From an uncultured Planctomycetota bacterium (GTDB lineage Bacteria > Planctomycetota > Phycisphaerae > Tepidisphaerales > Tepidisphaeraceae): 64,000 nt of DNA. Under the pieces are notes generated by a model. The model was not told the DNA's origin. It saw nothing but the letters and a program-made list of their open reading frames with translations, and searched no databases. The stretch spans positions 1,024,001 to 1,088,000 of the forward strand of contig CAWJEN010000006.1 of NCBI GenBank assembly GCA_963841915.1, given 5' to 3'. Position 1 is the stretch's first letter. Each line of letters opens with the position of its first letter. The position numbers and the translations under genes are program-made. Below, one piece after another: positions 18,030-29,143 of the stretch.

Positions 18030-19061
18030 TTATTGGAAGCCGCCGAACAGGACGATCGGGCCTGAAGGCACGGCCACGCCGCCGGCCGGCTCAAGGCTGA
18101 CGGCAATCCCGCCGAGCGATTCGGGCAACTCCTGCAGCGCCTGCACGTTGAGCGTGCCGCTACCCGTCTCATCGACCTTGAACGTCCCCAGCGGAACCGG
18201 ACCGCCTTTACCGACGATTGCCCACGCCTGGTACGTCTGCTCCGCAGCCGGCGGCGTGAGATTGCCCACGTCCAGCCGCAGCCTGCCTTCGCCGCGGCTC
18301 AAGACCACGTTGCCCGTCGCCTGACGCCTGGCTTCAGTACCTTCCAAGCTCGCCAGGAGCGTTTCAGGGATCATTGCCAGCCGAACCGCGTCGTTGGCAG
18401 CCGCGACCTGCGTCGAAAGCTCATCCAGCTGATTTTCAGCGTCGGCGAACTGTCCTCGAAGCTGGCCGACCCGGTCACGCAGCCGTCCGACCTCTGCTTG
18501 AAGCAGTTCGACAGCCGTGCCCTGGTTCTCCGCCAGCACATTGGCCTCACGAAGGGATTGCTGGGCGGCGTCGAGTTCAAGTTCAGCTTCCGCTGCCGCA
18601 GCAGCCCTCGCATCACGGGCGTCGCGTACCAGCACAAGATCGCCCTGCAGTTGTTCAACAATTTCTGTGAGCGTGTCAGCCTCCTGACGTGAGACTGCCA
18701 ACTGCCTGCTCGTCGAACTCGACCGCACCAGCAGGAAGGTCGAGAGCCCCAAAAGGCCCACCACGAGCAACGCCGCCACGGCCGGTAGCCACCATCGCGT
18801 CAACGGAACGGTGGACTTCCGCGTGCTGATTTGCCCGCGAAGTCGCTGCCATTGCATCTGTGTCACGCGGGCCGGCTGCGGCGCGTTGGCCAACGCGGCG
18901 GCGACCGCCTGGGCTTCTGCGAAGGCTGCGACTGCACGCGGATCGCCTGACTCCAACAGGCCCACGGCCTGATGCACCTCGGCCTCGTCGGCAAGTTCGG
19001 TAGCGTAGAGCAGCATCAATTCGCTCAGCTCCATCGGGGTTCGGGCTTTGTCATACATCAA
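18030..19061 (-). CDS. Anti-sigma factor, RskA-like, with coiled-coil insert
   Basis: N-terminal anti-sigma domain, one TM, coiled coil, 'YQAWAI' and 'IAVSLEPAGG...PSGPIV'; overlaps the sigma gene stop. Confidence 0.8.
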   Translation of the reverse strand: MMYDKARTPMELSELMLLYATELADEAEVHQAVGLLESGDPRAVAAFAEAQAVAAALANAPQPARVTQMQWQRLRGQISTRKSTVPLTRWWLPAVAALLVVGLLGLSTFLLVRSSSTSRQLAVSRQEADTLTEIVEQLQGDLVLVRDARDARAAAAAEAELELDAAQQSLREANVLAENQGTAVELLQAEVGRLRDRVGQLRGQFADAENQLDELSTQVAAANDAVRLAMIPETLLASLEGTEARRQATGNVVLSRGEGRLRLDVGNLTPPAAEQTYQAWAIVGKGGPVPLGTFKVDETGSGTLNVQALQELPESLGGIAVSLEPAGGVAVPSGPIVLFGGFQ

Positions 19062-19723
19062 GCCATCTCCTCCCCCGGCCGATGGCCGAACAACGCGCTT
19101 CTGATCTTCAAAAGGCCACGACGAATGTGTCCTTTCACAGTTCCAATCGGCGTTCCGGTCAGCTCGGCGATTTCCTTGTGAGTCAGACTGTCGTAAAACG
19201 CTAATTCTAGCGAACGCCTTTGGGCGTCCGGTAGCGTGTCCAGCGCTCCCAGAACAGCCTGTCGCAGTTCGTCCTGCTCGGCAGGATCGCCCGCTGGTTG
19301 ATCCGACTTCTCAGACGGAAGATGCCCTTCGTAGGGCACAGTTTGATGATCACGGCGTCGCAGGCGATCGAGACATCGACTGCGGGTGATCAATAGCAGA
19401 TACGAACGTGGACGGCCGCGGGATGCCGAGAATCTCGAACATTTCTCCCACACCTCCAGAAACACCTCGTTGACCGCGTCTTCGGCCTCGTGCTGATCCC
19501 TCAACATCCGCCGGGCCAGCCCCAGCATGAGCGGGCCGTGACGATGGAACAACGTTTCGAGCGCACTTACATCTCCGGCCACCATGCCGTCGAACAGTTG
19601 ATGATCGTCCCTGGCGTCTTCCACGTCTTCCGCGACCTTGCCGCGGGGGCAGCCTACACAAAGCAGGACGTTTGGGAAGGTCCAGCTTAGCCGACCGGCT
19701 AAGAGTGCAATGACGGCGGGCAC
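19058..19723 (-). CDS. ECF sigma factor (SigK-like); true start probably downstream of 19723
   Basis: 'AEDAVNEVFLEVW' region 2 and 'THKEIAELTGTPIGTVKGHIRRGL' region 4. Confidence 0.88.
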   Translation of the reverse strand: MPAVIALLAGRLSWTFPNVLLCVGCPRGKVAEDVEDARDDHQLFDGMVAGDVSALETLFHRHGPLMLGLARRMLRDQHEAEDAVNEVFLEVWEKCSRFSASRGRPRSYLLLITRSRCLDRLRRRDHQTVPYEGHLPSEKSDQPAGDPAEQDELRQAVLGALDTLPDAQRRSLELAFYDSLTHKEIAELTGTPIGTVKGHIRRGLLKIRSALFGHRPGEEMA

Positions 19724-20013
19724 GTCGCTTCCGTGCGTCCCACTAAGCTGCGGACGGACACCCTCGAGGTCAGCGAAGCCCCTTACGCCCCCTGAATCGG
19801 GTTGAGCAAGACCCCGAAAGGCGATCGCGTTTTGTCCCTTTGCCGCGCGTCTGCCCTAGCGTATGTTGCGTACTCATGGTGCAGGAGATCCCGATTCGAT
19901 CGGCAGGTCTCGGCAGTATTACTGCGTCGCCTGTGTGGGTGACAAGTGACATGAGAAGACACCTACGGATCGTCGTGCCGCACGGGCTCGGCACCGGAAT
20001 GCGGAGAAATAGC

Positions 20014-20904
20014 ATGAAAACCCAGATTCTTTTGGCCGCCACAGCGGCCGCTATCGCGAGTATGCCGGCTTCGGCCGACATCATTTATGGCCTGACGACG
20101 CAAAACAGCATTGCGGTCATCGACAGCGCCATGCCGAGCGACTCGATTGACGGCGGCTTCGTCATGGGCCTCGGCCAGAACGAGAACCTGCTCGAGATCG
20201 ACTACCGCCCCGGCACCGGCGAGCTGTACGCGATCAGCAGCCAGGACAACGTCTACACGATTGACCTGAACTCGTTCGAGGCCAACCTCGTCGGCAACTT
20301 CACCCCGCCGAGCCTGCGTGGCACGAGCTACGCCTTCGACTTCAACAACGCCTTCGATGGTGGCAGCGGCCTTGCCGCCGACATCGGCCGCTTCGCTCGC
20401 ATCATCAGCGACACCGACAACAACCGCGTTATCGACGGTGACACCGGTCAGTACCTCGGCACCCCCGAGAAGACCCCGGTCTTCTACCCGGCAGGTGACC
20501 CGAGCTTCGGCGTCAACCCGAACATCGTCGGCATCGGCTACACGAACGCCTTCCCCGGCGCTCAGAGCACCCAGCAGTACGGCATCGACCGCGCCACGGG
20601 CAACCTCGTCACCGTCGCCAACAACGCCGGCACGCTCAACACCGTTGGCAGCCTCGGCGTCACCGGCTTCACCAACGAGGCCGAGCTGGACATCTCGGGC
20701 GACAACGTCGCCTTCGCTGTCCTGCAGAACGGCCCCAGCAGCGTCCTGTACACGGTCGATCTCGGCACGGGTGCAGCCACGCCGCTCGGCGACTTCGCCA
20801 GCGGTGACCTGATCCGCAGCCTCGCTGTCGTTCCGGTTCCGGAGCCGACAACCGCCGCCGTCCTGGGCCTCGGTGCCCTCGGCATGCTGCGTCGCCGTCG
20901 CTAA
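20014..20904 (+). CDS. Secreted PEP-CTERM protein with DUF4394-like beta domain
   Basis: Signal peptide MKTQILLAATAAA; 'IDYRPGTGELYA', 'TVANNAGTLNTVGSLG'; C-terminus VPEPTTAAVLGLGALGMLRRRR. Confidence 0.85.
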   Translation: MKTQILLAATAAAIASMPASADIIYGLTTQNSIAVIDSAMPSDSIDGGFVMGLGQNENLLEIDYRPGTGELYAISSQDNVYTIDLNSFEANLVGNFTPPSLRGTSYAFDFNNAFDGGSGLAADIGRFARIISDTDNNRVIDGDTGQYLGTPEKTPVFYPAGDPSFGVNPNIVGIGYTNAFPGAQSTQQYGIDRATGNLVTVANNAGTLNTVGSLGVTGFTNEAELDISGDNVAFAVLQNGPSSVLYTVDLGTGAATPLGDFASGDLIRSLAVVPVPEPTTAAVLGLGALGMLRRRR

Positions 20905-21118: not shown

Positions 21119-21730
21119 TCAGTCCTTTTCCCGCCGGACGCCGAGTTCGCGGGCGATTTCGCCGTCGAGTTTGTCGAGCTGGCTGAGTTCTTCCTGTTCC
21201 TCTGCCACGACGTCCGCCTCGATCATGCGGTCGATTTCGTCGTCGGTCACCAGATCGTCTCGACTGCCGGCCGCCGCGGGGTCGGCCGAGCCGCCCTGCT
21301 CCATGGCGTCGAGGAACAGGTCCATCCGCTCTTCCATGCTGCCGGCCTGGCTGACGGCTTTCTCCCAGTCGGCCTGCGTCTTGGTCAGATCCAGCTCACC
21401 GAAACTGCGACCGATCTCGCGGGCGATGACGTTCATGCTCTCGGCAAACTCTCGACCGGCCTCGGCCTGCTTCTGGATGAGCATCGCGTTCTTCATGCTC
21501 AGCAATTGCCGCTCGAGCATCTTCCGCACTGCCGCAGTCCGCTTGAGGCTGCCGCGGATGAATTGGTACTGCTGCTCATCGCCGACGCGTTTGGCCTGCC
21601 GGGCGTTCTTGAGAAAGTCCTCGCCGAAGCGTTCCTGTTGTTTGATGGAACGCTCGATTGACCGCAGCGACTGCCGCAGCCGCATGTCCCGCTCGACGCG
21701 GCGTTCTTCTTTGCTTTTGAACAGGCCCAT
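21119..21730 (-). CDS. ESCRT-III-like (Snf7/CdvB-type) helical protein, 203 aa
   Basis: Starts MGLFK; basic N-terminal helical hairpin; acidic C-terminal half with 'VTDDEIDRMIE'; no TM segment. Confidence 0.65.
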   Translation of the reverse strand: MGLFKSKEERRVERDMRLRQSLRSIERSIKQQERFGEDFLKNARQAKRVGDEQQYQFIRGSLKRTAAVRKMLERQLLSMKNAMLIQKQAEAGREFAESMNVIAREIGRSFGELDLTKTQADWEKAVSQAGSMEERMDLFLDAMEQGGSADPAAAGSRDDLVTDDEIDRMIEADVVAEEQEELSQLDKLDGEIARELGVRREKD

Positions 21731-21741
21731 GAGGCGACAGC

Positions 21742-22377
21742 TTACGAGCCGGCGGCCGCTTCTGCTTGACTGGACGATCCACCGGCCAGCTTCTTGCGCG
21801 TCGCTTCCTCTGCCTGTTGGTACGCCTCGTCTTCTTCCACGCTGCCGGCGTCGAGCTGGTCCCACAGATGCATGAGATCGTTACCGCTTTTGCCCAGCTC
21901 CGCCGACTCGATCGCCTCGCGGTCAGCCATGCCGCCGATCTCGAGCAGTTGATCAAGCTTTTCGGCGTACACCTCCTGCCCCACCGCGTCGCTTTCGAGC
22001 CACCCGCTGACCTTGGCCATGTCCTTGGCAGTGAGATTCAATCGGCCGGCCCCGCTGGACGACTGCTGATTTTCTTTCACCATCCGCAGCCGGGCGACCG
22101 TCATGAGCTCTTTGCTCCGCAGGTTCAGCTCGCGGGCGGCCATGAGCTGTTCCTGCGTCTTGAGCTCGAAGTCCTGGGCCAGCGTCTTTCGCAGCTCCGG
22201 CGAACTCGACTGCTTGCCCTGCCTGAAGATTTCGTGCTTCTTCTGGGCGATGTCGTCGACGTTCTTGAACAGCTTGTCGCGACGCTTGGTGATGAGGATC
22301 TCCTCACGACGAAGCTCGCCGCGCGACAGCTGGCTGAGCGTCTTGTTCCGCCCGAAGATGCGATCGATCAGGGCCAC
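21742..22377 (-). CDS. ESCRT-III-like helical protein, 211 aa
   Basis: N-terminal amphipathic MALIDRIFG; basic coiled-coil hairpin then acidic tail; GTG start. Confidence 0.6.
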   Translation of the reverse strand: MALIDRIFGRNKTLSQLSRGELRREEILITKRRDKLFKNVDDIAQKKHEIFRQGKQSSSPELRKTLAQDFELKTQEQLMAARELNLRSKELMTVARLRMVKENQQSSSGAGRLNLTAKDMAKVSGWLESDAVGQEVYAEKLDQLLEIGGMADREAIESAELGKSGNDLMHLWDQLDAGSVEEDEAYQQAEEATRKKLAGGSSSQAEAAAGS

Positions 22378-22391
22378 GGTGCTGCTTTTCC

Positions 22392-23939
22392 TCAGTTGGC
22401 CTCTGCCCGCCGGGCCGGAGCGGCCTCGGGCTCGTCTTCAACAGGTGCTTCGACCTCGAACGCCCCGGCTGCCGGGTCTTTGGCCTTTTGCTTCGTCACC
22501 GGAATCTCACGCTCGAACGATGGCGTCTCGGCCTCCTTCGCCTTCATCGACTCGGCCGTCAGCTCGGCGTAGAGACGTTCTTCCTCGTCGCTCAAGCCCG
22601 TCGCGCCCGTCGAACCACCGGCCAGCTCGTCGGCCATTTCGGTCGTCACCTGCAGGTCGGCCAAGACCTCCTCGGCCCGGGCGGCGTCGTTGGCCAGCTC
22701 GTCGGCCGTCGGTAGCTTGCCGGCGACGCTGCCGGCCCGGGCCAGCTCCAGGTTGTGCAGGTGCGTGCCGACGACGTTGATCTGCTGGTTCAGCACGCCC
22801 ACCGTCTGCCGGCGGCGGTCGACGTCTTTACCGAGCTGCACGAGCTGGCTCGTGATGCGACGCCTGGCACCAGTCGACTCCTCCGCCGCGAATGACGCTT
22901 TAAGTTCCCGCTCGCGATCCTCGAGCGTCGCCATCTCGTCGTATTGGCGGTCGCGCTGGCGCGACAACGCCGCCCGCTGTTCGGCGAGTTCTGACAAGCG
23001 GGCCTCGGGTGAGACGTTGGCCCCGAGCATGCGACGCAGACGGTCCATGGTCGAAAGTGTACCCGACGATGCCGCCTGCGACCCGGCCCCTTGCGACGTG
23101 CCAGTCAAACTTTCGTCACGGAACAACATCGGCACGCCGTTCACCGGCTTGACCCGCAACGGCTCGCCGCTCCGCGCCGCCCATTGCTGCGTCGCCAACG
23201 CCACCGCACCGATCGGCAGATTCAATTGGTCGGCCAAGTCGTCCAAAGCGACGGCACCGGTGAGCAGGTCGATCTTCCGCTTGTCCAACGCCGCCGCGAC
23301 ACGGGCCTGCCGCTCGGCAGGTGCTTCGGGATCGAGCATCGCGATCAATCGTCCCGCAGCCGCCGGACCGGTCAACGTGAACCCACCGGCGTCGTTGGGC
23401 TCGATCAGAATCGTCGGAGGCCCGTCGACGAAGCTGCGGGCGACCTGCCTCGCTTCCTCCGTGAATCCACTGCCGCTGAACAGGATCAGCGTCATCGGTC
23501 CGCCGAATTGGTCGGACGGCGTCTTGCTGTCGCCTGGTGGTGGCAGTTGCCCGACCCGACGGCGAACGTCGTCTGATCCCATCGGCACGGGCTCGCGGCC
23601 ACGTGCAAGATCATCCCAGGGCGGCATCGACGCGAATCGAACGTGCGCTACCGGTTGCCGAAACGCCAGCAACACCTGACGGCCCAGCGACGCATCGAGG
23701 CCTTCGCCGATCGGCATCGCGTCTTGAAGCTCAAAGTCCGGCCGATCGGCGGCGACGAGCGACTGCTTCACCGCAGCCGCCTGATTCCACCGCACCACAA
23801 TCGGCGAAAACGCCATCGCCGGCTTCGGCCCAAGCGTCGTCGGCACGACGAACGCCCGGTCCGACAACAACCCGGTAACGTGGCTCACCACGCGTCGTTC
23901 ACTCTCCCGCTGCTTTCTGGCGGCTTGCGTGTCGCTCAT
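22392..23939 (-). CDS. Multidomain protein: nuclease-like N-domain, winged helix, C-terminal ESCRT-III (Snf7-like) domain
   Basis: 'TLILFSGSGFTEEAR'; HTH + beta wing 'VALDDLADQLNLPIGAVA...LRVKPVNGVPMLF'; from aa 298 a coiled-coil hairpin ending 'LSDEEERLYAEL'. Confidence 0.6.
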   Translation of the reverse strand: MSDTQAARKQRESERRVVSHVTGLLSDRAFVVPTTLGPKPAMAFSPIVVRWNQAAAVKQSLVAADRPDFELQDAMPIGEGLDASLGRQVLLAFRQPVAHVRFASMPPWDDLARGREPVPMGSDDVRRRVGQLPPPGDSKTPSDQFGGPMTLILFSGSGFTEEARQVARSFVDGPPTILIEPNDAGGFTLTGPAAAGRLIAMLDPEAPAERQARVAAALDKRKIDLLTGAVALDDLADQLNLPIGAVALATQQWAARSGEPLRVKPVNGVPMLFRDESLTGTSQGAGSQAASSGTLSTMDRLRRMLGANVSPEARLSELAEQRAALSRQRDRQYDEMATLEDRERELKASFAAEESTGARRRITSQLVQLGKDVDRRRQTVGVLNQQINVVGTHLHNLELARAGSVAGKLPTADELANDAARAEEVLADLQVTTEMADELAGGSTGATGLSDEEERLYAELTAESMKAKEAETPSFEREIPVTKQKAKDPAAGAFEVEAPVEDEPEAAPARRAEAN

Positions 23940-24098: not shown

Positions 24099-25007
24099 CT
24101 AGCCCAGTGCTTCCGTCGTCGGCGTGACCCGGCCGCACCGCGGGCAGAACGTTGCATCGACCGGAAGCTCGGCCCGACAGTCCTCGTGCGGACAATGCCG
24201 TGCCCGCCCGACCATCGCCGGCACCGCCTGCTTGGGCCGCTTGTCCCGCACGCGGCCGCGGAGCACGACGCCGAGCCTTTGCAACTGCTGCCGATCCGTT
24301 CGCGTCACGATGCGACGCAACGCGACGACGCTCACCGCCATGGGCAGCGCCCAGGTGATGCCCGTGTAGGCCAGCACGATTGCTGCCGTGGTCGGCACGA
24401 TGGCCATGCCGAAGTCCCATGCTTTGGGCGACTTCCAGGTTGCTTCGTCGAAGTGTCGGACAAAGCTCAACCCGGATCGGCCGTGCAGGTTGGCCCCAAC
24501 CCATGTGAGGAGAAATGAGAGGCCAATGAGCCCGAGAAACGCCATCTGCGGCGGCTTGGGCTCGCTGCCGCGGAACGGGTCGACGAGCCAAAGCCGCCAC
24601 AACGGCTCACCGATGACGAGGTGCATGACGGCAGCCAACCCCGCCGCCAACGCCACCGCCTGGGCGGCCAGTGCCAGCACCTTCGCTGCGTGATCCTTCG
24701 CCTCGTCACCCGCCTTGCCGTCGAGCCTGGCCCAGTCGGCGACATGGCCCAGCACGTCTCGTCGCCACCGAACCGCGGTTCTAAGACACGATGCGTTGAT
24801 CCACGCCGGCCCCAACCCGGCTGTCGCAAGCCCGAGAACAAACGTCTGCCACACGTGCCCCTGCGTCGCCTCGGGCGGCGTGCGATCCAGCGTCGTCAGC
24901 AACGTCGACGTCAGCAGAGGCGGCGATTCGCCTCCGTCTGTGGCGTGCATGTCGTCGAGCACTTTCATCGCGTTGTCTTGTCGATCTGAAGACGCAGCTG
25001 CCCACAA
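24099..25007 (-). CDS. Multi-pass membrane protein with C-terminal zinc ribbon (start 25007 or 24968)
   Basis: About four hydrophobic segments; CPHEDC-x10-CPRCG. Confidence 0.7.
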   Translation of the reverse strand: MWAAASSDRQDNAMKVLDDMHATDGGESPPLLTSTLLTTLDRTPPEATQGHVWQTFVLGLATAGLGPAWINASCLRTAVRWRRDVLGHVADWARLDGKAGDEAKDHAAKVLALAAQAVALAAGLAAVMHLVIGEPLWRLWLVDPFRGSEPKPPQMAFLGLIGLSFLLTWVGANLHGRSGLSFVRHFDEATWKSPKAWDFGMAIVPTTAAIVLAYTGITWALPMAVSVVALRRIVTRTDRQQLQRLGVVLRGRVRDKRPKQAVPAMVGRARHCPHEDCRAELPVDATFCPRCGRVTPTTEALG

Positions 25008-25046: not shown

Positions 25047-25364
25047 TCAAGCCACAGCCGGTGCATTCGAGAGCATCCGACCGCAATGCCGACAGTACCG
25101 TGCGGCCTGTGGATTGATGGTCCGACAGACCGGATCAGGACACGCCCGACGACTTGGCGTCACGTCGCCCTTGCGGCGGCCGACGGTCGGCCAGATGGCC
25201 AGCTTGGTCATGATCATGACCAGGCCGCGGAGGGCGATCCAGCCGACCCAGAAGACGAATGCGACAGCCGTTAATGCCGTAATGCCTGCCGTGAACAGCA
25301 CGAACAAAGCGGCCTCCGGCGAGGCGAGCGGTTGGGCGAAATGGACGGTGAGGTCTGCGGACAT
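25047..25364 (-). CDS. Small membrane protein with C-terminal zinc ribbon
   Basis: Long hydrophobic segment; CPDPVC-x10-CRHCG. Confidence 0.75.
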   Translation of the reverse strand: MSADLTVHFAQPLASPEAALFVLFTAGITALTAVAFVFWVGWIALRGLVMIMTKLAIWPTVGRRKGDVTPSRRACPDPVCRTINPQAARYCRHCGRMLSNAPAVA

Positions 25365-25376
25365 CGGACCGGTATC

Positions 25377-25724
25377 TTACGCGATGGGCGACGCCAAGGT
25401 GCGGCCGCAACGCCGACAGAATCGGGCACCGGCCGGATTCTCGCAGCTGCAACGCAGGTTGCCGCAAGGTACGCCCAGCGTCACCGGCGAGACCACGTAC
25501 CGCGACCGCCCGCCCAACGACGGGCCGATTCCGATCGCCCGGAACGGCAGCGCGATGACCCAGCCGACGGTGTACCCGATGCCCTCGAGCACGGTCGCCA
25601 GCAGCCTGATCGTGCCGCGAATGAGCAGAAGGAGACCGCCGATCGTCCAGATGAGCAGGTACGAGGCGAAGATCGACACGAGGACGACCCCGACCATGAG
25701 CACGATGGTTTTGACGATCATCAT
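25377..25724 (-). CDS. Small membrane protein with C-terminal zinc ribbon
   Basis: Hydrophobic N-half; CGNLRC-x10-CRRCG; ATGA overlap with the kinase stop. Confidence 0.75.
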   Translation of the reverse strand: MMIVKTIVLMVGVVLVSIFASYLLIWTIGGLLLLIRGTIRLLATVLEGIGYTVGWVIALPFRAIGIGPSLGGRSRYVVSPVTLGVPCGNLRCSCENPAGARFCRRCGRTLASPIA

Positions 25725-26818
25725 GCCTTGCCTCCTGTCGCGGCGGCTTTGGACCCGCTCAGGCCGTTGCCGCAGAACATGCAGTACGCGTCACCGGGCG
25801 CCGGGAACGCCCCGCACTTGCCGCAGCGACAGATCGCCTCGACGAGTTGCTTGCCGCACCGCATGCAGAACTGGTCGTTGGGGTCGGCCCTGCCGCCACA
25901 AGACGGGCAGCTGCCGGCCGCAAGCTGTTTCAGGCCTTCCGGCACCTGCGCTCGTGACGGGGCTGATGCACTGCCGATGAGCGCGGCCGCAAATGCGCCG
26001 GCAGAGGCAAAGCGGTTGTCGAGCCTCGCATAGCTACGCCGGAACGCTTCGTCCAAGTGCGACGGCACGTTCTTGACGAGATCGCTCGGCACGTCCGTAC
26101 CGGCCGGTCGTTCGCCCGTGAGCATCTCGAAGAGCATCACGCCACACGCGTACACATCGGCTCGGCCGTCGACGTTGGCGTTGGTCCGCTGCTCGGGCGC
26201 CATGTAGTCGAGGCTGCCGGCAACGCTGCCGGTGGCCGTGTTGTCGGTCGTGAAGACGAGACTGCCGGCCCCGCCCGTGGCAACGCCACTGGCCGCGTGC
26301 TCGGCGGCACCGAGGCCGAAATCAGTCAATTTCACCAGGCCGTCGCCGGCCAATCCCGGGCCGCCCGCTTTGAGGGCCTGCTCGTGGATGAGAACGTTCT
26401 CGGGCTTGACGTCGCGGTGGACGACGCCCCGCTCGTGGGCGTGGGAAAGGGCGGCCAGAACCTGGGCGAGGACAGCCGTCGCATCATCGGGCCTCATTCT
26501 TCCGCGGCCGATGAGGTCGCGCAGCGTCGTGCCCGGCACGTACTCCATGACGAGGTAAGGCGTCTCGGCAAACGGGTCGATGCCGATCGCCTTGACGATG
26601 CCGATGTGGTCGAGCCGGTGGGCCATCACGCCCTCACGACGCAACGCCTGGAGATAAGCCGGGTCGCGCGGCAGTTTGACGGCGGCAATCTGGTCGGCCC
26701 AGACGTGGTGGCGGGCCCGCCACACGTCGCCGAACGTGCCGTGGCCGACGGGCGACTCCAGCACCCACTCGGCGATACGGCTGCCTTCGCGTGGTTGTCG
26801 TGCGTCTGACTTTGGCAT
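25721..26818 (-). CDS. Hanks-type Ser/Thr protein kinase with C-terminal double zinc ribbon
   Basis: GHGTFGDV, AAVK, HRDVKPEN, DFG, YMAPE; CPSCG..CMRCG and CGKCG..CMFCG; no TM. Confidence 0.92.
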   Translation of the reverse strand: MPKSDARQPREGSRIAEWVLESPVGHGTFGDVWRARHHVWADQIAAVKLPRDPAYLQALRREGVMAHRLDHIGIVKAIGIDPFAETPYLVMEYVPGTTLRDLIGRGRMRPDDATAVLAQVLAALSHAHERGVVHRDVKPENVLIHEQALKAGGPGLAGDGLVKLTDFGLGAAEHAASGVATGGAGSLVFTTDNTATGSVAGSLDYMAPEQRTNANVDGRADVYACGVMLFEMLTGERPAGTDVPSDLVKNVPSHLDEAFRRSYARLDNRFASAGAFAAALIGSASAPSRAQVPEGLKQLAAGSCPSCGGRADPNDQFCMRCGKQLVEAICRCGKCGAFPAPGDAYCMFCGNGLSGSKAAATGGKA

Positions 26819-26880
26819 CGTGCTCACTTCGCGTCCGTGGTTCCCCGCACAAGGTACCACGAAAAGCGGACCATGGGCAG

Positions 26881-26966: not shown

Positions 26967-27362
26967 TCATCCGACGAGTCGGTCGGCGATGAAGTCGCAG
27001 GTCAGGAGATTGTACGCCGTGGCCAGCAGTGCCCCGACGATGAAAAACCCGATCGCGACGCCGCCTCCGACGCCAAAATCAAACATCCACCAGAGTCCGA
27101 GAAGTTCCAGCAGCGAGACCGTTGCGACCAGAAAAATGCCCGCACCGTTCGAATCGGCCCGCGCAACTTTGACGACCACGCCCACCAGCACCCAGGGCGT
27201 CACGGCGACGATGAGCACCCACGCCACGATCTTGCCCCCCGCGTCGAAGAACACCGCCCGCCCTTCGGGCCCCGCCTGCCAGAACGCGATAGCCGCCACA
27301 ACGACGGCCAGGAAGACGAACCCGCCGACGACCTTGCCGCCGATGCCTTTGAGGAAGTCCAT
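26967..27362 (-). CDS. Four-TM membrane protein, hypothetical
   Basis: 131 aa, mostly hydrophobic; same strand, just upstream of the kinase operon. Confidence 0.75.
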   Translation of the reverse strand: MDFLKGIGGKVVGGFVFLAVVVAAIAFWQAGPEGRAVFFDAGGKIVAWVLIVAVTPWVLVGVVVKVARADSNGAGIFLVATVSLLELLGLWWMFDFGVGGGVAIGFFIVGALLATAYNLLTCDFIADRLVG

Positions 27363-27450: not shown

Positions 27451-28434
27451 ATGCCGCGGACGCTCGATTACGCCCGGCAGCAGACATCTGGCGGGCCTCG
27501 ACTCGACGTGTGCGTCATCATCGCCGTTTGGGCGACGGCGTGCCTGCCCTTTCTGGCGATTCTCGGCGATGTTTTGCGTGGTCTGGCCAATTTGCTGACC
27601 GCGCTGGCTGCGGCGATTGCCGTCATAGCCGCGATCATCGGCATCGTGCGGACCTCGACGTTTCGCGGCATTCGGATCGTGACCGTCCATCGCCCGACCT
27701 ACGGCACCGGGCTGGCGGCAGCGTGCCTCATCATCGGCGGACTCGTTCTGCTGGCGAACCTGATGCCGACCTACAGCGGCCGATCGCCAAAGGCGGCAGC
27801 CATGGTCAAGTGCGGATTTAATCTGCGGCAGATCGGCTTTGCCGCACGGCAGTATGCCCAACTTTATGGAGAATTTCCGAGCGACTTCGAAACGCTGATC
27901 GAGTTAACGGATCTGTCAGCGGAGAGTCTCGTGTGCCCTCATCATGACCTTCCCCGCGGCCAAAGAGGGTTGACGTACAGCTATGTCCCGCTGATGCACG
28001 GACTGACGCCGGCATCACCACCCGATCTTGTGGCTGCGATCTGTCCCTCATACCTCCATCAAAACGACGGAGGCAACGTGCTCTATGCGGACGGGAGCGT
28101 GCGCTTCGAACGACATGACCTGTTGCCGATTCTGCTCGGTGAACAGTTCGCCCGGCCATCGACGCGGCCGGTCGGACAGGTTGACGACGGGCTGAGTGAT
28201 CGAGAAGACCCAGGCGCCGGTGCCACTGATTGGCCGCATTCTGATGCGGACAACCAGTGTCGGTGGCGTATCGCAGCCCAGCCCGGGAGACATAGTCTGC
28301 GTCACATATCCACGCGGGGAAACCGTGTCCGGTGGCGGCAGCGGCACGGTTTGCCCGCCGCAGACGGCGGCTCATACCGTGGCACCGCGGTTCGTCCGCC
28401 GGCCGAATTATTCCGAGTCGCCTGGTGCTTTTGA
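27451..28434 (+). CDS. Membrane protein with H-X9-DG motif (DUF1559 C-terminus-like); C-terminal part runs into a repeat array
   Basis: Three TM segments, 'CGFNLRQIGFAARQY', 'HQNDGGNVLYADGSV'. Confidence 0.7.
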   Translation: MPRTLDYARQQTSGGPRLDVCVIIAVWATACLPFLAILGDVLRGLANLLTALAAAIAVIAAIIGIVRTSTFRGIRIVTVHRPTYGTGLAAACLIIGGLVLLANLMPTYSGRSPKAAAMVKCGFNLRQIGFAARQYAQLYGEFPSDFETLIELTDLSAESLVCPHHDLPRGQRGLTYSYVPLMHGLTPASPPDLVAAICPSYLHQNDGGNVLYADGSVRFERHDLLPILLGEQFARPSTRPVGQVDDGLSDREDPGAGATDWPHSDADNQCRWRIAAQPGRHSLRHISTRGNRVRWRQRHGLPAADGGSYRGTAVRPPAELFRVAWCF

Positions 28435-28851
28435 TTGGGCCTGGTGCCACTGATTGGCCGCATTCTGATGCGGACAACCAGTGTCGGTGACGTACCGCAG
28501 CCCGAGCCGGGTGACGTAGTCTGCGCCGTATGTCCACACGCGTAAACCATGTCCGGCGGCGGCAGCGGCACGGTTTGCCCGCCGCAGACGGCGGCTCATA
28601 CCGTGGCACCGCGGTTCGTCCGCCGGCCGAATTATTCCGAGTCGCCTGGTGCTTTTGATTGGGCCTGGTGCCACTGATTGGCCGCATTCTGATGCGGACA
28701 ACCAGTGTCGGTGACGTACCGCAGCCCGAGCCGGGTGACGTAGTCTGCGCCGTATGTCCACACGCGTAAACCATGTCCGGCGGCGGCAGCGGCACGGTTT
28801 GCCCGCCGCAGACGGCGGCTCAAACCGTGGCACCGCGCTTCGTCCGCCGGC
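28219..28851. repeat. Tandem array of about 2.8 x 224-bp units, each with two opposed REP-like palindromes
   Basis: GGTGCCACTGATTGGCCGCATTCTGATGCGGACAACCAGTG recurs at 28219, 28443 and 28667. Confidence 0.92.
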
Positions 28852-29060
28852 AGACACGTTGCGGGTCGCTCGGTGCCGCGGCATGTCTCATTGAGATACG
28901 TTGGCGGAACACGCGTTGCGCCGCGGCGGCCGCGGCGGCGCGTGTTGTAATCGGGCGTACGGTGTACGGCGGCGGACTTGTTTGTCCGTCCAAAAGCTGC
29001 ACGGCGAATAACATTTTTAACGCGTGGCCGACGACCCGCCGACGTACTCGGCGGAGTCGA

Positions 29061-29076
29061 TGTTCCACGTGGAACA
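29061..29076. promoter_or_regulatory. parS-type centromere site
   Basis: Perfect palindrome TGTTCCACGTGGAACA. Confidence 0.85.
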
Positions 29077-29127: not shown

Positions 29128-29143
29128 TGTTCCACGTGGAACA
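29128..29143. promoter_or_regulatory. parS-type centromere site
   Basis: Perfect palindrome TGTTCCACGTGGAACA. Confidence 0.85.

Follow-up and report, generated by a model that had tools for sequence, protein, structure and literature searches.

A planctomycete fusion gene that probably encodes an ESCRT-II-like adaptor joined to an ESCRT-III-like subunit

[quoted passage not shown] Its open reading frame lies on the minus strand, reads from 23939 to 22392 and encodes 515 amino acids (aa). A first-pass annotation, made from the letters of the window, had named no strand for it and had divided the product into three parts, and this anatomy is borne out by motif positions, linker, in-frame ATG and predicted structure. 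The stretch TLILFSGSGFTEEARQVA occupies aa 150-167 and TILIE aa 176-180; a glycine/serine (G/S)-rich linker covers approximately aa 278-297; and the in-frame ATG at 23048 encodes M298. An AlphaFold2 model of the full protein (mean predicted local distance difference test score 87.5, predicted template-modelling score 0.76) has an alpha/beta region at aa 3-201, helices and a beta-hairpin at aa 207-274, a low-confidence linker at aa 284-294 and C-terminal helices at aa 297-304, 311-352, 356-406, 412-440 and 451-471. The gene and its parts are as follows.

22392..23939, minus strand: fusion gene encoding 515 aa, in order an alpha/beta N-domain, a winged helix, a linker, an ESCRT-III-like domain and an acidic tail
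23331..23939, minus strand: N-domain, aa 1-203; alpha/beta, with a fold that may be a degenerate restriction-nuclease (Mrr-like) one, and without the catalytic lysine motif
23109..23330, minus strand: winged-helix domain, aa 204-277, with which the stand-alone gene stops in split relatives
23049..23108, minus strand: G/S-rich linker, aa 278-297; carries a Shine-Dalgarno motif in most relatives, eroded here
23055..23057, minus strand: CTT codon where the family has a conserved ATG as internal start, which this genus has lost
23046..23048, minus strand: in-frame ATG (M298), corresponding to the second Met in the M-x-x-M start of the family; a candidate internal start that lacks a Shine-Dalgarno motif
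22527..23048, minus strand: ESCRT-III-like domain, aa 298-471; amphipathic helix 0, long hairpin and two further helices; basic front, acidic back

The reading frame is not a chance one, because a first protein search returned 77 relatives, mostly full length and, where named, from Planctomycetota or Phycisphaerae, and because one copy is present in 57 of the 61 genomes of the order (the unpublished genome G468 is among the four misses). The closest loci with named records belong to Tepidisphaeraceae and Tepidisphaerales. Pfam and NCBIfam scans found no family matching the 515-aa protein, and searches of the PDB with profiles of the whole protein and of its N-half gave no significant match; Pfam DUF489 matches 41 of 73 family members, at best with E = 5e-4.

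Across the phylum, where a strict filter finds the family in 73 of 401 genomes, the gene exists in two forms. The 109 distinct loci comprise 68 fused ones, from the class of the window's genome, and 41 from other Planctomycetota that are split at the linker; the split homologues that the first-pass annotation had proposed looking for therefore exist. Outside the window's class the N-domain and winged helix form a gene of about 265-280 aa that ends right after the wing, with a separate C-domain gene closely downstream, whereas the 68 fused loci keep a single frame across linkers of about 6-26 codons. In a quick unrooted tree of 80 rows, thinned from 105, one branch divides 52 fused from 28 split rows (Shimodaira-Hasegawa-like approximate likelihood ratio test, SH-aLRT, 96). 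We infer one fusion event in the class, given the start signal retained at the join and the many families that have the split form; the linker would be former intergenic space, and the split arrangement the ancestral type. In the split loci L050 (9574-11034) and L054 (9587-11098) the first gene, its start being our own call, appears to be extended 5' by a MerR-type helix-turn-helix (Pfam E 3.7e-6 in L054), and the fused gene at L164:9256-10685 (genome G445) is broken about 72 codons past the winged helix, by a frameshift or an assembly error.

In the window the operon runs from a membrane protein through a Ser/Thr kinase and three zinc-ribbon membrane proteins to the fusion gene and two ESCRT-III-like genes.

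26967..27362, minus strand: small multi-pass membrane protein, first operon gene
25721..26860, minus strand: Ser/Thr protein kinase, its catalytic motifs intact, ending in a double zinc ribbon
25377..25724, minus strand: small membrane protein with zinc ribbon, paralogue of 25047..25364
25047..25364, minus strand: small membrane protein with zinc ribbon
24099..25007, minus strand: membrane protein with C-terminal zinc ribbon, start codon uncertain
21742..22377, minus strand: second ESCRT-III-like gene (E3b), homologous to the fusion C-domain
21119..21730, minus strand: Snf7-family ESCRT-III gene (E3a); profile matches CHMP3, Snf7 and CHMP2A

Of 16 named loci, 14 have the kinase and all 16 have the gene that comes next downstream. 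The family of E3a is clearly of Snf7 type: its profile matches CHMP3 (E = 2.4e-4) and Snf7 (6e-3), and also CHMP2A, with no PspA row, and PF03357 is found in 100 of its 120 best relatives, the window's own copy falling below the Pfam model. Genes for an ATPase of MIT+AAA type and for an SPFH-propeller protein accompany 17 and 12, respectively, of 20 split loci, and 8 each of 12 fused loci of other families, as counted with profiles partly built from these same loci. Neither was found in the 20 loci read from the window's family, two of which are the same place. Both genes are present in the window's genome away from the operon, the ATPase at C6:665527-666690 and the SPFH-propeller gene at C6:976641-978152. 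The latter (also L180:6642-8153) encodes a divergent homologue of 503 aa, against about 600, and lies 70 kb from the operon.

This ATPase appears to carry an N-terminal MIT domain on a single AAA domain. Its aa 11-385 align end to end with the CdvC model (E 8e-64), the only model that covers the N-terminus, at 216 bits against a cut-off of 650, and the Cdc48 and PAN models score slightly higher. The best PDB match of its N-terminal profile is 2mpk (E = 7e-4), which we take to be a MIT domain; the Pfam MIT model matches the N-terminal domain in 2 of 15 cases, with E = 0.011. A MIT-like N-terminal ATPase domain occurs in 34 of 41 genomes of the order, G468 among them. A second ATPase type, observed in split loci only, has VPS4B as its best single-domain PDB match, and its N-terminal profile finds VPS4 MIT chains at E 0.22 and 1.2. 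In the accessible part of Makarova 2024 (PMC10936438), the Vps4/CdvC type is defined by a MIT domain or by ESCRT neighbours. With a Snf7-family neighbour and MIT+AAA ATPases, the ESCRT context is stronger than the first-pass annotation knew, and we consider it very likely that the fusion protein belongs to an ESCRT-type system. In the split loci L047-L066 there are often MIT+AAA ATPases of two kinds and as many as four ESCRT-III-like genes; in the loci read, the fused class has a single ATPase type.

The middle domain had been called a winged helix, and structural comparison agrees: the model has a three-helix bundle followed by a C-terminal beta-hairpin wing. The model contains one winged helix, not the tandem winged helices of ESCRT-II (Vps22/25/36), and in the comparison Z-alpha, UFL1 and PCI domains appear to resemble it as closely as ESCRT-II does. 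The fusion protein is a member neither of ESCRT-II nor of the active Mrr nucleases. The N-half might instead bind nucleic acid and so tie the polymer to DNA or RNA, for example in chromosome coordination or foreign-DNA sensing, and seeding on nucleic acid had been suggested for it. Its top structural neighbours do include Z-alpha, SelB and transcription-factor winged helices; the best Foldseek rows outside the winged helix, obtained with the full-length model, are the restriction enzymes MspJI, BsmI and AspBHI (E 0.06-0.2, root-mean-square deviation [rmsd] 8-14); and wing positions 264, 265, 269 and 274 are basic in 40-90% of members. However, of 42 members, 83% have a neutral or acidic would-be recognition helix (aa 243-257), and in 64% the same holds for the domain as a whole. 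The neighbouring genes are of membrane and ESCRT type, none of them DNA-handling; the N-half has no PADLOC family match; and a single copy in nearly every genome of the order is unlike a defence island. Seeding on nucleic acid thus finds no support here, and we regard this explanation as unlikely.

The C-domain has the layout of an ESCRT-III subunit: helix 0, a helix 1-2 hairpin, further short helices, a basic front (+3) and an acidic back (-16), with the same polarity as both downstream genes. With a moment of 0.60, ranking 19 of 504 windows, its first helix is amphipathic. The product of the next gene, E3b, is a homologue of the domain (profile match 95.7% and 93.8%); the E3a profile does not match it (0.8% and 0.17%). 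Pfam finds no Snf7 (PF03357) match in the window copy or in 73 members, and a 37-member profile places CdvB at E = 0.27, behind designed coiled coils. In Foldseek the six best rows for the full model are CdvB2 filaments, but with E 0.014-0.06 and rmsd of about 20; VIA-align is unable to separate ESCRT-III from other hairpins. The description as Snf7-like therefore holds for layout, charge and context and is not matched by significant sequence similarity. In shape and company the C-domain is plausibly ESCRT-III-like, a putative member of that family, and its descent from ESCRT-III is likely.

Alternatively, the C-domain could be a degenerate helical-hairpin scaffold, CdvA- or ESCRT-I-like in its role, that recruits true ESCRT-III while staying outside the filament. 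The missing profile match to its Snf7-family neighbour, the absence of Pfam Snf7 matches in all 73 members and the unspecific structure matches would suit such a scaffold. Against a scaffold, the domain has the full helix 0 to helix 5-type layout and the charge polarity of both neighbours; two separate searches, weak as their matches are, singled out CdvB and CdvB2; the relative P0175 is named CdvB/Snf7 family by its source; and the C-domain is a free gene in 41 loci. We consider a scaffold improbable.

The conserved C-terminal EPEAG motif of the fusion is encoded by a Shine-Dalgarno-like sequence at 22392-22410, which in several loci (L003, L009, L097, L098, L102, L106, L107) precedes the start of the next gene; EPEAG may have been retained because it couples translation, because it serves as a tail that binds the ATPase, or for both reasons. 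Stand-alone relatives of the C-domain with divergent starts and tails also exist (P0179, P0185, P0191, P0201, P0205, P0211, P0213, P0215, P0217, P0222). One of these lies on a 522-kb contig, and the group is possibly mobile or phage-borne; viral-contig scans for two of them gave no match.

The first-pass annotation had also suggested that the internal ATG yields a free ESCRT-III subunit. In a first set, 40 of 41 fused loci have a Met in the linker. With the 16S tail sequence taken from the window itself, pairing upstream of the linker ATG averaged -8.4 kcal/mol, compared with -1.6 for 359 further in-frame ATGs in these genes (P = 5e-22, overstated because the genomes are related). Glycine codons preceding the linker Met are GGA 38, GGT 30, GGC 7 and GGG 6 times, whereas elsewhere in the gene the counts are 110, 102, 606 and 258. 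In other families the same Shine-Dalgarno motif is encoded under Lys-Glu, Glu-Glu-Asp, Gln-Glu or Ala-Arg-Ser; the same motif under different amino acids implies selection on the nucleotides. Over all 68 fused loci a linker ATG is present in 66, with pairing of -4 or better in 59 and -6.5 or better in 51, the best ATG of each locus being taken, with a mild upward bias. Because the ATG is so widely kept, and the Shine-Dalgarno motif persists under differing amino acids, most fused genes are likely to give two in-frame products, and use of the internal start across the class appears highly probable from these sequence signals. The cultured strain Fontivita pretiosa (L004) has a fused operon with a strong internal start signal.

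Two observations weigh against an internal start in the window itself. In its genus the linker pairs at only -2.4, and the family's start position reads CTT, ATA or ATT. Because the Shine-Dalgarno signal is eroded there, a start at 23048 is doubtful. Weak pairing does not by itself exclude it, since only 20% of the 2956 predicted starts of this genome pair at -4 or better; local folding at 23048 is -8.2, compared with -7.3 at true starts and -10.4 at internal ATGs. Overall, we think it somewhat improbable that this genome uses the internal start, so the suggestion of a free subunit is well founded for the class and weak for 23048.

These data also bear on whether the fusion is a tolerated read-through of two genes, in which the join has no function and the separate halves alone matter. 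Such a view would fit the start signal that the second gene has retained, the 41 loci in which the halves work separately, and two N-only proteins of fused-type sequence, P0143 and P0144. Nevertheless, one frame is kept through all 68 variable linkers, on one side of the single well-supported branch of the quick tree, and in the window's clade the join persists while the internal start decays. A functionless join is thus quite unlikely.

The N-domain had been likened to Mrr-type restriction endonucleases. A 141-member profile matches a 17-member alignment of Mrr_cat (PF04471) at 82.7% (P 9.6e-6, 104 columns), with D82 opposite the catalytic Asp of Mrr, whereas the best of 51 unrelated families reaches 2.6% and the best of 30 block shuffles 24.6%; helix and strand order and the strand-SGFT-helix-strand end are alike. 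Against an Mrr-like fold, the N-domain has insertions and no Q/E-x-K motif, the match hangs on one 13-residue stretch, falling to 0.45% when aa 153-165 are masked, and 23 split-type members alone reach only 0.5%. The structural searches used the full-length model; beside the restriction enzymes, Foldseek returned viral Rpb5 (E 0.026), whose N-domain presumably has a restriction-endonuclease-like fold, and the winged helix took up the whole of both VIA-align lists, which are therefore uninformative on the N-domain. The resemblance is thus weak overall, and we put a restriction-endonuclease-like (Mrr-like) fold at about even odds.

The catalytic D...(D/E/Q)xK pattern, which the first-pass annotation had proposed checking, was not found in the N-domain: among the 141 members, lysine occurs at aa 98-105 in only 0-5%, and D82 is acidic in just 52%. 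Nuclease activity is therefore unlikely. An active Mrr-type nuclease, for which the profile match and an E14 kept in 84% of members could be cited, is highly improbable given these losses, the dependence of the match on aa 153-165 and the lack of any match to the Mrr_cat model in this genome. A word-limited profile search for relatives of the N-half returned 12 proteins, none named outside Planctomycetota, and ESM Atlas gave no usable named match for aa 1-203. As leads only, ESM Atlas placed the N-half near one 276-aa planctomycete cluster (0.90) and two archaeal clusters of 133 and 521 aa (Methanobacteriota, 0.76-0.78), the longer of which could be arCOG09748.

In its likely workings the fusion protein resembles the adaptor-and-primer end of an ESCRT system of archaeal type. 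In the part of Makarova 2024 (PMC10936438) available to us, archaeal ESCRT loci (arCOG09748 'Main' clade, arCOG11741 Halo_adaptin, and Meth_adaptin with SPFH) likewise place a winged-helix gene directly upstream of the ESCRT-III genes, and contain MIT+AAA ATPase, Ser/Thr kinase, SPFH and zinc-ribbon proteins. The planctomycete adaptor differs in being bacterial, in combining an alpha/beta domain with one winged helix and no coiled coil, and in being fused to the ESCRT-III-like subunit in one class. Crenarchaeal CdvB, as presented in the accessible part of PMC12818579, also carries an ESCRT-III domain and a winged helix on one chain, but there the winged helix is C-terminal, whereas in the fusion it is N-terminal, follows a 200-aa domain and is separable by the internal start. 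The weak best matches of the fusion are CdvB and CdvB2. Eukaryotic and Asgard ESCRT-II (Vps22/25/36) differs from the single winged helix and covalent join seen here, there is no sequence match, and no ESCRT-I or ubiquitin genes were seen in the planctomycete loci read. Nor is this the bacterial PspA/Vipp1 branch of the ESCRT-III superfamily: the neighbouring E3a family matches CHMP/Snf7 and not PspA, its partners are MIT+AAA ATPases, and PspA_IM30 (PF04012) has 0 matches in this genome (control positive in 9 of 14).

In eukaryotes, Vps25 of ESCRT-II primes Vps20-type ESCRT-III. We propose that the fusion protein is probably the upstream, ESCRT-II-like adaptor of a planctomycete ESCRT-III/Vps4-type membrane-remodelling system, joined in one class to the first ESCRT-III-like subunit; a role specifically as adaptor or primer is slightly favoured. 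The domain layout, the split form, the operon and the internal start signal conserved in relatives are observed; the binding steps we infer, with gene order and the parallels in archaea and eukaryotes as our basis. Together, the winged helix and the nuclease-dead alpha/beta domain would bind a membrane-anchored operon partner (the zinc-ribbon membrane proteins, the kinase or the SPFH-propeller protein). Docking would bring the tethered ESCRT-III-like domain to the membrane's inner face and prime a copolymer with the two downstream subunits, which the MIT+AAA ATPase, encoded elsewhere in this genome, would recycle under control of the kinase. For most of the class, ribosomes would start a second time within the linker and also yield a free subunit, so that one gene supplies both seed and chain; in the window's genus this step may be reduced or lost.

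Two cellular roles would fit. Membrane repair or vesicle formation would fit the SPFH and kinase partners and the absence of PspA. Division would fit the single copy that is nearly fixed in the order, and also the lack of FtsZ: of 31 genomes of the order, 0 gave a match to FtsZ/tubulin (control positive in 13 of 14). We rejected a universal division machine as a general explanation, since most of the sampled families gave no match to the gene: it was found in 40 of 151 genomes of the class and, under the strict filter, in 73 of 401 of the phylum, with several families of the class at 0 of 14-20. It is conceivable, but improbable, that some FtsZ-less Planctomycetota cut their membrane at division (or uptake) by an archaeo-eukaryote-type cascade of kinase-controlled anchor, dead-nuclease winged-helix adaptor, three ESCRT-III subunits and Vps4-like ATPase, with a dual-start gene fixing the ratio of seed to free subunit.

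Such a system would bear on several published statements, each taken from the accessible part of its source. According to a 2025 review, bacterial ESCRT-III systems appear to lack a Vps4-like ATPase (PMC7619361). Homologues of ESCRT components are assigned to archaea and not bacteria in a 2024 survey (PMC10936438), whose main text and supplement, as far as available, contain no planctomycete or Mrr mention that we found. According to Ravi 2024 (PMC11237479), Planctomycetes have Vps4-like ATPases, but a TPR-6TM gene has displaced snf7, and FtsZ-free division and the uptake mechanisms of planctomycetes are described as unexplained (PMC12673574). In the literature outside subscription journals we found no paper describing this system, none combining Planctomycetota, ESCRT and Vps4, none among the papers listed on Phycisphaerae, and none joining ESCRT-III with internal translation initiation. 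The fusion system is real and conserved and, as it appears, undescribed in print, although Table S3 and the web tables of Ravi 2024, which lie beyond the accessible part, could list its proteins. The locus adds a winged-helix adaptor layer to the bacterial ESCRT-III/Vps4-like set, and the split form, the fused form with an internal start and the fused form with an eroded start make a natural series for testing how ESCRT-III filaments are primed.

The window has other features outside these subjects. A coiled-coil match to JetC in PADLOC was rejected as compositional, and a promoter and terminator scan gave nothing exceeding chance. Beside the operon's end, 18030-20904 holds an ECF (extracytoplasmic function) sigma factor accompanied by an anti-sigma of RskA type, as well as a PEP-CTERM DUF4394 gene, and the 3' end of a 16S rRNA gene lies at about 14310 on the minus strand. 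Two perfect 16-bp palindromes, at 29061-29076 and 29128-29143 (0.03 expected by chance), match what we take to be the parS consensus; they stand just past the end of a DnaK-like open reading frame, named by eye, and the origin may be near. Finally, 28219-28890 holds three tandem 224-nt copies, 83-93% alike, that repeat the end of the open reading frame 27451-28434; short copies similar to these also lie elsewhere in the genome.
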